Positions 38,615 to 58,297 of a DNA stretch of 64,000 nt are shown piece by piece; the stretch's first letter is position 1, and the number at the start of each line of letters is the position of its first letter. A program made the position numbers and the translations under genes. The notes under the pieces were generated by a model that had not been told where the DNA came from, did not search any database, and saw only the letters and a program-made list of their open reading frames with translations. Source of the DNA: Escherichia coli (GTDB lineage: Bacteria > Pseudomonadota > Gammaproteobacteria > Enterobacterales > Enterobacteriaceae); NCBI RefSeq assembly GCF_965641715.1, contig NZ_OZ282453.1; one strand, given 5' to 3'.

Positions 38615-38717
38615 ATGCCAGATGCGGCGTAAACGCCTTATCCGGCCTACAAATTCTTCCAAATTCAATATATTGCAGAAATCATGTAGGCCTGATAAGC
38701 GTAGCGCATCAGGCAAT
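38615..38717. repeat. REP pair (BIME) between ysaA and avtA
   Basis: Units gatgcggcgtaaacgccttatccggcctac and gtaggcctgataagcgtagcgcatcaggcaat. Confidence 0.65.
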
Positions 38718-40150: not shown

Positions 40151-42181
40151 TCACTGTTGCCCAGCCCAGATGACCAGCACTTTATCGTCGCCATGCTCAC
40201 GAACAAAGCCGTAGCCCTGCTTCAGCGAAAGTGTCGTTTGTTTGCCCGCGCCAATTGCGGGATGGCGGGCGCGGAACTGGCTGATTTTCTGCCAGTGCGC
40301 GACGCTGGCGGCAGATTTACCGCTAACATCCTGCCAGTTCATATCCGAACGTGTACCTTGCAGCGGATCAGAACCTGTAGGACCGAACGGACGCGAGGAT
40401 TCATCACCATAAAAGATTTGTACCGCGCCTGGCGCTAATAGTAATAACTCTGCTGCTTTGTCGCCCCCTTCACGGAACAGGCGGGTATCATGCGACGAGA
40501 GGTAGCTCAACACGTTGAAACCCTGCAATTTCTCCGCCATTTGCTGCCAGGTCGTATCCATCTGCGCCAGACAATCGACTGCTTTCGCCGCCTGCTCCTG
40601 ATAATCGAAATTGATCATCGCATCGAAGCCGTGGCGATAGTAGTCACTTTGCATCACGCCGTGGCCCCAGGCTTCACCGGTCATCCAGAAAGGTTTGTCA
40701 TCTAATGCTTTGTCGGGGTTAGCTTTTTTCCATTCGCGAAGCGCGGCGCTGGCTTCGGTTTTCAGTTGCTGCCAGGCGGGCAACTCAACATGTTTGGCGG
40801 TATCAACTCGAAAACCATCAATCCCATAGTCGCGGACCCACTGACTTAACCAGTGGGTTAAGTAATCGCGAGGGGTAAAGCCGTCGATGACTTTAGCGTG
40901 GGTATCCGTTTTGTTTTTATAGAACACCGGCAGACCAGAAGCGGTCGTTGATTCGGTTTTGATATCCGGCAAAAAGGCCAGCGACATAGTGAGATCGTCA
41001 AATCCAGGATTGTCGTAATCGCCGATATCCGTTCTGATCCAGTTTTTTCCCCACCATTTATCCCAGCCTGTTTTGTCGCTGAAATTAATGTAATCGTTAA
41101 AGCTATGCCAGGTTTGCCCGGCGGCAGGTTCCCAGTCGCTCCAGCGTTCACCCAGCGTTTTTTTTACTTCGTCACCAGAAAGATATAACGCGCCAAACTG
41201 ATACTCCTGCATATCCGCCAGCGTGGCATAGCCGGTGTGGTTCATCACGACATCAAAGAGAATACGAATACCGCGCTGATGCGCGCTATCAACCAGCGTC
41301 CGTAGATCGGCTTCGCTGCCCATATTGGCATCAAGATTCGTCCAGTCCTGTGTGTAATAACCGTGGTAGGCATAATGCGGGAAATCACCTTTTGTACCGC
41401 CGCCGACCCAGCCGTGAATTTGCTCAAATGGGGCGCTTATCCACAAAGCATTGACGCCCAGCTGCTGGAGATAATCCAGTTTGTTGGTCAGGCCGCGTAA
41501 ATCGCCGCCGTGAAAAGTACCTATTTCTGCCATACCGTCTTTATGACGTCCGTAACTCTGGTCATTACTGGGATCGCCGTTTTCGAAACGATCTGTCAGC
41601 ACAAAGTAAACCGTGGCGTTATGCCAGTCGAAAGGGGCAGGGACGTCAGTTTCTGCCCGTTCCAGCAGGAGTAAACCGTTGCTGGTGGCAGCGGGTTGTA
41701 ACGTTATTTGACCGTTCTTCACTATCGCAATTTGCTGGCTGTAATAATCCCGTACGGCGGCTCCTTCCGGAAAAGTGGCGCTGACATCCAGCGTGAGCGG
41801 TAATCCATCCCATTTCGGGCATACACGGACCTGGTTTGCTACCGGTTCGGCGGCGTTCTGGATGGAAATCATCAATGTTGGCGTGCCGGAGCGGGTGTCT
41901 ATTTGCAGCGTATATTCGCCGTCCCTGAACAATCGCCATTGAGGCGGCGTGTTGCTACAAGGTTGCAGGGAAAGCATCTGATTGAGTTTTATCGCATCCG
42001 CAGGCTGCCAGCACTGTTGGTCAAAATTTAGCGTTAGTGGACGCGTACCTTTGGGCAACTGCGCGTGGCTGACAAATGTTCCCGCTCCCTGTTCACTAAA
42101 GGCAGGGAACCCCGGAGAAGTCCAGCTGGCGGCAACGGCGAAGCCAGGAAGGAGTGTCAGAAAACAGGCGGCGAGTTTCAT
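40151..42181 (-). CDS. malS: Periplasmic alpha-amylase, 676 aa
   Basis: Signal peptide plus GH13 catalytic regions (GFRVDTAKH, FDVVMNH); length match. Confidence 0.93.
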   Translation of the reverse strand: MKLAACFLTLLPGFAVAASWTSPGFPAFSEQGAGTFVSHAQLPKGTRPLTLNFDQQCWQPADAIKLNQMLSLQPCSNTPPQWRLFRDGEYTLQIDTRSGTPTLMISIQNAAEPVANQVRVCPKWDGLPLTLDVSATFPEGAAVRDYYSQQIAIVKNGQITLQPAATSNGLLLLERAETDVPAPFDWHNATVYFVLTDRFENGDPSNDQSYGRHKDGMAEIGTFHGGDLRGLTNKLDYLQQLGVNALWISAPFEQIHGWVGGGTKGDFPHYAYHGYYTQDWTNLDANMGSEADLRTLVDSAHQRGIRILFDVVMNHTGYATLADMQEYQFGALYLSGDEVKKTLGERWSDWEPAAGQTWHSFNDYINFSDKTGWDKWWGKNWIRTDIGDYDNPGFDDLTMSLAFLPDIKTESTTASGLPVFYKNKTDTHAKVIDGFTPRDYLTHWLSQWVRDYGIDGFRVDTAKHVELPAWQQLKTEASAALREWKKANPDKALDDKPFWMTGEAWGHGVMQSDYYRHGFDAMINFDYQEQAAKAVDCLAQMDTTWQQMAEKLQGFNVLSYLSSHDTRLFREGGDKAAELLLLAPGAVQIFYGDESSRPFGPTGSDPLQGTRSDMNWQDVSGKSAASVAHWQKISQFRARHPAIGAGKQTTLSLKQGYGFVREHGDDKVLVIWAGQQ

Positions 42182-42500
42182 GGCGGATGAGTCCTTATTG
42201 CTGCGATTTCAGACAGTTTGCCAGCGATAAGCCAAACAAAACTCATCCCTGAGCGGTAAGTCCACAGGATGAGAAGCAAGGTTGAGCGATCTCGCGCAAA
42301 AAACGGCTGAATTTTGCGATAAACCCCACATTTTCTGCGATTTAGCGCCAATCTGAATCGTTAACACGTGACATAGTTTCAGATTTGGACTATTCCTTGG
42401 GGTGCTCTTGACAGCTATTTTTGATATGATTTGAGATTCAACTCTCAAATTTGTGAAAAATATAAGGTGTTGGAATGATTAAATCCGACCAGGAGACCTG

Positions 42501-43325
42501 ATGATTTTGACTCCCATACGACGATATGGGGCGATGATTCTTATGTTACTCACTCTGGTGTTTTCGAGTGAGGTGTTAGCGAAGACGCACACAACAACAG
42601 CGAGTCAAAAGTCCCACTTAACTAAAGCTAGTAATAAACAGGTAAGCAGTAAACAAGAGTATTCTCGCAATAGTGCAAAGAGTAGTTCACTTCCTGATTT
42701 GCGAAAATACCCTTCCGGAACACCAAGGAAAAAGGCGTTTCTCCGGACCGTAATGCCTTACATTACCAGCCAAAATGCAGCCATTACTGCAGAACGTAAC
42801 TGGCTGATTTCAAAACAGTATCAGGGCCAATGGTCACCTGCTGAGCGTGCGCGTCTGAAAGACATCGCCAAACGCTACAAGGTGAAGTGGTCTGGTAATA
42901 CGCGAAAAATCCCGTGGAATGCCTTGCTTGAACGCGTAGACATTATCCCTACCAGTATGGTGGCGACGATGGCTGCAGCAGAAAGCGGTTGGGGAACGTC
43001 GAAGCTGGCGCGCAACAACAACAATCTTTTCGGCATGAAATGCATGAAAGGACGTTGTACCAATGCGCCGGGTAAAGTGAAAGGGTACTCACAGTTTAGT
43101 TCTGTCAAAGAATCGGTGAGCGCCTATGTCACTAACCTCAATACGCATCCGGCTTACTCTTCGTTCCGTAAATCGCGTGCGCAGCTGCGTAAAGCTGATC
43201 AGGAAGTGACTGCCACAGCGATGATTCACAAGCTGAAGGGCTACTCGACCAAAGGGAAGAGTTATAACAACTACCTGTTCGCAATGTACCAGGATAACCA
43301 ACGGTTAATCGCGGCGCATATGTAA
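42501..43325 (+). CDS. bax: Bax protein (putative glucosaminidase-like), 274 aa
   Basis: Length and sequence match; between malS and xylR. Confidence 0.88.
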   Translation: MILTPIRRYGAMILMLLTLVFSSEVLAKTHTTTASQKSHLTKASNKQVSSKQEYSRNSAKSSSLPDLRKYPSGTPRKKAFLRTVMPYITSQNAAITAERNWLISKQYQGQWSPAERARLKDIAKRYKVKWSGNTRKIPWNALLERVDIIPTSMVATMAAAESGWGTSKLARNNNNLFGMKCMKGRCTNAPGKVKGYSQFSSVKESVSAYVTNLNTHPAYSSFRKSRAQLRKADQEVTATAMIHKLKGYSTKGKSYNNYLFAMYQDNQRLIAAHM

Positions 43326-57306: not shown

Positions 57307-57585
57307 TCGCTAAATAATAGAGCAACCTTTAATAATCTTCTGCTGAATAAAGATTATCTCATATATTAATTTTATGAGATTTTTTTAGGATTATATCAAG
57401 GAGAAGAAACAAACTTATTAAGCTAGAATAGCCACGGGTGCTTGAGACTGTTTGTCTCAGGTATTCACCGAAAGGCAGACAGAGAAAAGCCCCACCTGAC
57501 TATAAATCAAAGTGAGGCCCCTCTATGCATAGACACCATAAGGTTAGCCTCTTACTCGTTGGAAATCAACACAGGGGGGCTGGGA

Positions 57586-57738
57586 ATGCCGCAGAAATAT
57601 AGATTGCTTTCTTTAATAGTGATTTGTTTCACGCTTTTATTTTTCACCTGGATGATAAGAGATTCACTGTGTGAATTGCATATTAAACAGGGGAGTTATG
57701 AGCTGGCGGCATTTTTAGCCTGCAATTTGAAAGAGTAA
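57586..57738 (+). CDS. hokA: Hok-family type I toxin, 50 aa
   Basis: MPQKYRLLSLIVICFTLLFFTWMIRDSLCELHIKQGSYELAAFLACNLKE: one transmembrane helix and conserved Hok C-terminus; an in-frame upstream extension exists in the ORF track (57442). Confidence 0.8.
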   Translation: MPQKYRLLSLIVICFTLLFFTWMIRDSLCELHIKQGSYELAAFLACNLKE

Positions 57739-57870
57739 GAGTCTTTGGCGGGAAATTATTCCCGCCTTTCTTACGGCGTTGGCATTCTCATTGCACCCAA
57801 ATTTATTTTTCACAAAAATAATACTAGATTTTATTACGCGATCGATTATTTATTTCCTGAAAAACAAATA

Positions 57871-57897
57871 AAAAAATCCCCGCCAAATGGCAGGGAT
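57871..57897 (-). terminator. Rho-independent terminator of cspA
   Basis: On the minus strand, hairpin atccctgcc / ggcgggga (one mismatch) followed by a U-run. Confidence 0.65.
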
Positions 57898-57924
57898 CTT
57901 AGATTCTGTGCTTTTAAGCAGAGA

Positions 57925-58137
57925 TTACAGGCTGGTTACGTTACCAGCTGCCGGGCCTTTAGCGCCGCTTTCGATGGTGAAGGACACTTTCTGACCTTCG
58001 TCCAGAGATTTGTAACCATCGTTCTGGATAGCAGAGAAGTGTACGAACACGTCTTTAGAGCCATCGTCAGGAGTGATGAAGCCGAAGCCTTTGTCAGCGT
58101 TGAACCATTTTACGATACCAGTCATTTTACCGGACAT
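57925..58137 (-). CDS. cspA: Major cold-shock protein CspA, 70 aa
   Basis: Exact CspA-type sequence with RNP motifs KGFGFI and VFVHF. Confidence 0.97.
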
Positions 58138-58297
58138 AGTGTATTACCTTTAATAATTAAGTGTGCCTTTCGGCGATATGGCGTGCTTTACAGATTTTGA
58201 AGCGTTAAAGGAATGTGCACTACGAGGGGTATCAACGATAACTCTTGAAGGGACTTGCCTTACTACACTGCTTTAATGGTCTGTACGTCAAACCGTT
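58138..58297 (-). promoter_or_regulatory. cspA long 5' UTR (cold-responsive RNA thermosensor region)
   Basis: About 160 nt upstream of the cspA start; role from established knowledge; exact transcription start not determined here. Confidence 0.6.

Follow-up and report, generated by a model that had tools for sequence, protein, structure and literature searches.

Two GGATGA hexamers, one on each strand, lie upstream of the Escherichia coli gene malS and raise the question whether they are binding sites of the activator MalT or chance matches to its short recognition motif. malS is a textbook member of the maltose (MalT) regulon. The study of Schneider et al. 1992 (J Biol Chem 267:5148) is presumably the one that characterised its promoter. 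The MalT dependence of malS, to which the initial annotation had referred, agrees with the literature (PMC10223318), in which malS is described as being regulated by MalT, and malS is up-regulated together with malEFG and malK-lamB-malM (PMC2763269). In the passages of PMC7567727 that deal with the MalT box of E. coli and Klebsiella, the box is given as a core GGA(T/G)GA within 5'-GGGGA(T/G)GAGG.

The hexamers were analysed within a window of 64,000 nucleotides, i.e. the whole stretch of DNA considered here, which belongs to the E. coli chromosome. A query of 901 bp that included the site matched 5423 of the 5426 complete E. coli genomes, with 99.8% identity for the best matches, and the features annotated under the match are malS (alpha-amylase) and bax. 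As the malS coding sequence ends at 42181 and bax begins at 42501, positions 42182-42500 represent the entire divergent malS-bax spacer of 319 bp. For comparison, one genome per species was scanned, which yielded 80 malS loci with 75-93% protein identity from Escherichia, Citrobacter, Salmonella, Enterobacter, Klebsiella, Raoultella, Kluyvera, Kosakonia, Cedecea, Buttiauxella, and other genera. In 77 of these 80 Enterobacteriaceae loci, the neighbour divergent from malS is bax, and the spacer mostly has a length of 313-316 bp, so that the shared control region is old and stable in the family.

Direct reading of the plus strand confirmed GGATGA at 42267-42272 and TCATCC at 42243-42248, both within 100 bp upstream of malS (62-91 nt from the start codon). 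The initial annotation was also right that the two copies have opposite orientations, but its labels have to be exchanged. Because malS is encoded on the minus strand, the copy at 42243-42248 reads GGATGA along malS transcription and is thus directed toward malS, and the copy at 42267-42272 is the inverted one. Three further elements had been absent from that annotation, i.e. a third exact GGATGA (42185-42190) and a degenerate box, GGTTGA (42280-42285), both on the plus strand, and a -10 element. The features of the region are summarized in Table 1.

Table 1. Features of the malS-bax region. Positions refer to the 64,000-nt window; matches of the boxes are to the decamer GGGGAKGAGG.
Feature	Position	Strand	Details
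malS coding sequence	40151-42181	minus	periplasmic alpha-amylase, 676 aa; A of the start codon at 42181; ORF list, annotation in matching E. coli genomes and K-12
Third exact GGATGA	42185..42190	plus	between malS Shine-Dalgarno motif (AAGGA, 42196..42192) and ATG
malS transcription start (inferred)	42207..42209	minus	~42208; K-12 U00096.3 ~3,737,470; leader ~27 nt
Extended -10 element	42215..42223	minus	TGgCAAACT; hexamer CAAACT 42220..42215; TG 42223..42222
Proximal MalT box	42241..42250	minus	AGGGATGAGT toward malS; core GGATGA 42248..42243; 8/10
Distal MalT box 1	42265..42274	plus	CAGGATGAGA; core GGATGA 42267-42272; 7/10
Distal MalT box 2	42278..42287	plus	AAGGTTGAGC; core GGTTGA 42280-42285; 6/10
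Candidate CRP site	42315..42330	minus	TGTGG-GGTTTA-TCGCA; 8/10 to TGTGA-N6-TCACA; centre 42322.5
bax	42501-43325	plus	divergent from malS; ORF list and annotation

Read in the direction of malS, the minus-strand promoter sequence is ...gatcgcTCAACCttgcttcTCATCCtgtggacttaccgctcagGGATGAgttttgtttggcttatcgcTGgCAAACTgtctgAAAtcgcagcaatAAGGActcatccgccATG, and the elements follow each other in the order degenerate box, 7 nt, inverted box, 18 nt, malS-directed box, 22 nt, extended -10 element. The two distal boxes are both inverted relative to malS and form a direct repeat, with 3 bp between the decamers and 13 bp between the centres of the cores, which share a strand. Vidal-Ingigliardi et al. 1991 described a pair of directly repeated MalT sites upstream of a proximal one, as far as their work is cited in PMC7567727, and such a pair is found at malS, on one strand and with a constant gap of 7 nt. 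A register of distal box 2 shifted by 3 bp was also considered and was rejected, because the match is poorer and the 13-bp repeat that malP, malK, and malZ also have would be lost.

Frequencies of the single motifs were determined within the window. GGATGA is not in excess, with 37 occurrences vs. 29.8 +/- 4.7 expected ones, and the same is true for GGGGAKGAGG with up to two mismatches (62 vs. 66.5 expected). Heptamer counts in the window are likewise at chance level, and three GGAKGA copies within 100 bp were reached in 27 of 200 shuffles. As all single-motif counts are at chance level, a motif scan alone cannot decide the case of malS. These frequencies are compatible with the view that the hexamers are chance matches and that MalT acts on malS from sites in another part of the spacer, as is the third exact copy at 42185-42190, which is evidently fortuitous. 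The motif scan that the initial annotation had named as a check was uninformative for GGATGA alone and informative for an ordered composite. The pattern TCMTCC-N6-20-GGAKGA-N22-NANNNT has one site in the window and was found in 3 of 300 dinucleotide-preserving shuffles; after addition of the third box, one site was again found in the 64-kb window, and none of the 300 shuffles contained the pattern.

The composite was then relaxed so that position 4 of distal box 1 was unspecified, the proximal core could begin with G or T, and the spacer could have 8-18 nt. This looser version was found at the promoter position in 78 of the 80 other malS loci and nowhere else in 780 kb, both strands included. 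The two exceptions keep the layout and have one degenerate box each, i.e. TACGCC in L041 and the proximal core GGGGGA in L079 (Limnobaculum). The blocks can be seen in the raw upstream sequences even without an alignment.

The distances between the elements are nearly fixed, with one exception. The gap between the two distal boxes is 7 nt in every anchored locus, and the distance from the proximal hexamer to the -10 element is 22 nt in 79 of 79 parsed loci and also in 79 of 79 N22-anchored sequences (a value of 23 nt for L038 was a regex artefact and was counted as 22). The distal pair and the proximal box are separated by 17 nt in 38 loci, by 18 nt in 32 loci, and by 8 nt in nine loci (L036, L038, L045, L051, L054, L058, L062, L073, and L078). 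The latter belong to Kluyvera, Trabulsiella, Pseudocitrobacter, and relatives; every box is intact in them, about 70-130 nt upstream of malS. These changes of 9-10 bp, i.e. about one helical turn, leave the boxes on one and the same side of the helix, and the coexistence of 8-nt with 17/18-nt spacers indicates that the MalT nucleoprotein complex probably tolerates the loss of one helical turn. Among the 79 sequences, the variable position of the proximal box is T in 48 cases and G in 31 cases, the corresponding position of distal box 1 is C in 50 and A in 29 cases on the malS strand, and the malS-strand hexamer of distal box 2 is TCACCC in 45, TCATCC in 20, and TCAGCC in nine cases.

Such anchored spacing and base counts are partly circular, because the anchor itself requires the motif, and an unanchored MAFFT alignment of 26 Enterobacteriaceae sequences was therefore used as an independent check. 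Invariant columns are found only in the three boxes and the -10 element, at A42209, at T42330 within the candidate CRP site, and in the ATG. For the proximal box they comprise G42248, G42247, A42246, G42244, and A42243, and conservation of the next two bases, G and T, is at least 90%; for distal box 1 they are 42272, 42271, 42268, and 42267; and for distal box 2 they are 42285, 42284, 42281, and 42280. The majority-base fractions are 0.86 for box 2, 0.75 for box 1, 0.85 for the proximal box, and 0.88 for the -10 element, vs. 0.40-0.47 for the spacers (0.41 and 0.40 for the two long ones). The hexamers are thus invariant or nearly invariant blocks in DNA that is otherwise unconserved, which supports their assignment as MalT boxes. 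No other MalT-like conserved block was seen in the malS-proximal part of the spacer in the 26-sequence alignment. Fixed spacing and invariance in the 26 aligned species and in 78 of 80 loci, together with this lack of competing blocks, make it very improbable that the hexamers are chance matches.

The binding of a regulator other than MalT to the conserved blocks is also hard to reconcile with the data. Distal box 2 departs from the MalT core in most species (GGGTGA), as could be expected for a different protein. However, the boxes match the MalT consensus and vary only at its known degenerate position: across species, the cores read GGA(T/G)GA and alternate at the T/G position of the published consensus. 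In addition, malS is documented as being MalT-dependent (PMC10223318), and the whole architecture is common to the upstream regions of malP, malK, and malZ of K-12 (see below). We therefore regard this explanation as extremely unlikely. With regard to the boxes themselves, each one is statistically unremarkable when taken alone, and box 2 matches the consensus at only 6 of 10 positions here, with a third core base that varies between genera. At this position the window differs from K-12 (TCAACC vs. TCACCC, corresponding to a plus-strand T at 42282). Of the 5426 complete E. coli genomes, 28 carry the 42282-T allele and 5353 the K-12 form. Since the third core base, unlike the rest of the box, differs freely from genus to genus, a large effect of 42282-T is not expected.

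The malP-malT, malE-malK, and malZ upstream regions of K-12 MG1655 were compared after alignment on the proximal hexamer. We take the malP, malK, and malZ upstream regions to be MalT targets. The composite pattern has exactly one site in each of the three, and they have the same spacing and orientation of the hexamers as malS, which further supports the assignment and argues against chance matches. The gap between the two distal boxes is 7 nt in all three, and a distance of 22 nt from the proximal hexamer to an xAxxxT -10 element is found at malP, malK, malZ, and also malE. The -10 hexamers are CAAACT at malP (preceded by TGG, as at malS), CATAGT at malK, TGGCAAGGT at malZ, and GAAACT at malE.

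The highest similarity was found for malPp, the promoter of malPQ, which like malS has two inverted boxes 7 nt apart, a forward box, and, after 22 nt, an identical -10 element, TGGCAAACT. From the distal pair to the proximal box, malP has 17 nt, as does malS of Klebsiella and Enterobacter, whereas E. coli malS has 18 nt. The malP boxes (TCATCC, TCCTCC, and GGATGAGG) are nearer to the consensus than those of malS, and the proximal box ends with GG at malP, in contrast to GT at malS in nearly all species. malKp and malZp share the ordered layout, the 22 nt to the -10 element, and inverted boxes 17-18 nt from the proximal box. malK differs in having overlapping box registers 3 bp apart, of which the shifted register, with an 18-nt spacer, fits the shared layout; this agrees with the mechanism of MalT repositioning that was reportedly described by Richet et al. 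1991 (Cell 66:1185). malZ differs in its proximal core, TGATGA. Outside this group, a TCATCC-5nt-GGATGA motif of Actinoplanes sp. SE50/110 has the same cores, which are also convergent and overlap the -35 region, but its spacer is 5 nt instead of 8, 17, or 18 nt, a third direct-repeat box is lacking, and the genes are not maltose genes (PMC7567727).

The -10 element of malS is as well conserved as the boxes. C42220, A42219, and T42215 are invariant in the 26-sequence alignment, 36 of 79 sequences have CAAACT and 30 have CACACT as the hexamer, and in 52 of the 79 a TGG directly precedes it. At the -35 position, 17 nt upstream of the -10 element, the sequence reads AGTTTT and does not match TTGACA at any of the six positions. 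A scan of 42100-42600 for consensus sigma-70 promoters did not reveal any -35/-10 pair, and the lack of both a -35 element and a consensus sigma-70 promoter is as expected of an activator-dependent promoter. A conserved run of A residues is located 6-8 nt downstream of the -10 element; A42209 is invariant and 42208 and 42207 are at least 90% conserved. With a start at 42208, the proximal hexamer would be located at -40 to -35 and its decamer would be centred at about -37.5, and the two distal decamers would be centred at about -61.5 and -74.5; this numbering rests on the assignment of the -10 element, from which it is derived. We infer that the proximal box extends from about -42 to -33 and occupies the place of a -35 element. 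In K-12 U00096.3 coordinates, with the ATG (42181) placed at 3,737,497, the boxes (42287..42241) would correspond to 3,737,391-3,737,437. A MalT box that overlaps the -35 region and ends at about -34.5/-35.5 is mentioned in the part of Boos & Shuman 1998 that is quoted in PMC7567727, and a malS hexamer at -40 to -35 would be compatible with such a position. Genome-wide start-site supplements had no entry for malS or nearby coordinates, and full-text literature searches with MalT box sequences and promoter names did not retrieve mapped malS sites.

Taken together, 42207-42287 is, with high confidence from comparison of the sequences, a MalT-dependent promoter of malS with three boxes, an extended -10 element, and no -35 hexamer, and the two GGATGA hexamers very probably are two of its three activator sites.

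The third exact GGATGA, which would be located at +19 to +24 of the malS leader, might likewise be considered a functional MalT site that modulates malS, as its core is exact and its decamer matches at 8 of 10 positions (GCGGATGAGT). However, among the species compared, it is exact only in the window, in K-12, and in E. whittamii. It is mutated in two other Escherichia lineages (TCATCT and TCATTC) and absent from all other genera, and by our own estimate an extra hexamer is found in 319 bp, on either strand, with a probability of ~0.15. A function in MalT binding thus seems very doubtful, and judging from this distribution the third copy is probably a chance occurrence.

Farther upstream, a candidate site for CRP was found, the consensus of which is the palindrome TGTGA-N6-TCACA. 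In 65 of 79 loci, a fixed distance of 44-46 nt separates the best CRP-like 16-mer from distal box 2 downstream of it, and in 51 of 79 the 16-mer matches at 8 of 10 positions. In the 26-sequence alignment, T42330 does not vary, and conservation reaches at least 90% at 42318, 42316, and 42315. The centre would be at about -114.5 from the inferred start, where CRP does not classically activate, and a direct role of this site in the catabolite control of malS is speculative. At malK the CRP sites abut the MalT repeat, in contrast to malS, where the CRP-like site is ~37 bp upstream of box 2. A further difference between the window and K-12 is located at 42323, in the spacer that separates the half-sites of the CRP-like site (GGGGTTTA vs. 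GGGGGTTA).

The bax-proximal half of the spacer (42350-42500) is also highly conserved, with a mean column identity of 76% across genera vs. 56% for the malS-proximal half. Its long invariant runs include AAATAGTCC, CCGAAAC, and ATGTCAC. A promoter or operator of bax may be located in this block, or a long malS leader may begin there. For the bax-malS spacer, Shimada et al. 2014 (PMC3946193) reported a SELEX peak of the RpoD holoenzyme together with the predicted promoters TTCACA-17-TCAAAT and TTGATA-18-TCAAAT, and both predicted promoters fall within 42421-42456. A long malS 5' UTR RNA of Salmonella Typhi is mentioned in literature that cites the original work. A perfect 8-bp inverted repeat at 42429-42450, ATTTGAGA-ttcaac-TCTCAAAT, overlaps both predicted promoters (PMC3946193) and reads CRP-like, i.e. 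TGAGA-N6-TCTCA here and TGTGA-N6-TCGCA in one other genus.

An Rfam scan of the whole window gave no match above threshold in the spacer. The only RNA-family match of the spacer, STnc180 at 42362-42470 (minus strand; 18 bits, E = 0.5), was rejected as a chance match, and STnc180 was not found at gathering threshold upstream of malS in Salmonella, Citrobacter, Klebsiella, or another E. coli. Elsewhere in the window, gathering-level matches were obtained for the sRNA ES036 (CssrF) at 38651-38693 (plus strand, beyond avtA; also in L014), for the sok antitoxin RNA (CssrC) at 57436-57588 (plus strand), and for the cspA thermoregulator leader at 57870-58297 (minus strand). A search for structure in the bax-side leader revealed one small invariant hairpin only, and covariation was not found. 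Neither an Rfam family nor a conserved RNA fold thus explains the conserved block. The hairpin, GUUGGA/UCCGAC, has 6 bp, shows no covariation, and encloses the AUG of a leader ORF, MIKSDQET*, at 42475-42501 (plus strand). The last nucleotide of this ORF is the first of the bax start codon (TGATG), the ORF is baxL (b4794) in the K-12 annotation, and its pattern MxxSDQET is retained in most of the sampled genera.

The SELEX peak and the predicted promoters (PMC3946193), the S. Typhi 5' UTR RNA as mentioned in the citing literature, and the conservation of the bax-proximal half would be in line with MalT boxes that are assigned correctly but serve a different start or register, e.g. with a proximal box centred at -38.5, or with much of the malS transcription coming from a sigma-70 promoter at about 42420-42455 and having a leader of ~240 nt that extends across the MalT boxes. 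In contrast, the 22 nt to a conserved extended -10 element, as at four other mal promoters of K-12, fit a start at about 42208, and neither a conserved RNA structure on the bax strand nor an Rfam match above threshold was found there. A different start or register thus appears unlikely. An upstream promoter and the MalT promoter are not mutually exclusive, and the long S. Typhi 5' UTR and the bax-proximal SELEX peak suggest that a second, upstream start may also feed malS. A control in two tiers would consist of the MalT promoter, helped by CRP at about -114, and the sigma-70 start at about 42420-42455 with its ~240-nt leader; we consider this combination possible but rather improbable. The sigma-70 start may then be sensitive to CRP, and its transcript may cross the MalT boxes like the S. 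Typhi malS 5' UTR. If so, MalT occupancy could also gate or block read-through.

For the MalT promoter proper, a simple series of steps can be proposed. In the presence of maltotriose and ATP, MalT would multimerise and bind the three boxes cooperatively, and the bound MalT would recruit RNA polymerase to a promoter that is presumably unable to work alone. Transcription would then start near 42208 and result in a leader of ~27 nt. Cooperative binding of multimeric MalT to its boxes and recruitment of RNA polymerase are known from earlier work (PMC4381067), and the general model of the regulon is that of Richet & Raibaud 1989, Vidal-Ingigliardi et al. 1991, and Boos & Shuman 1998, as cited in PMC7567727 and PMC4381067.

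The malS region is therefore an ordinary MalT promoter and represents known biology, and the significance beyond annotation is small, i.e. base-level coordinates are now available for the malS promoter elements of this strain. With a simple composite pattern, MalT promoters are located without a false match in ~0.8 Mb, and natural spacer variants of 9-10 bp preserve the helical phasing of the boxes. The comparison also shows that purifying selection acts on the malS promoter elements across the Enterobacteriaceae.
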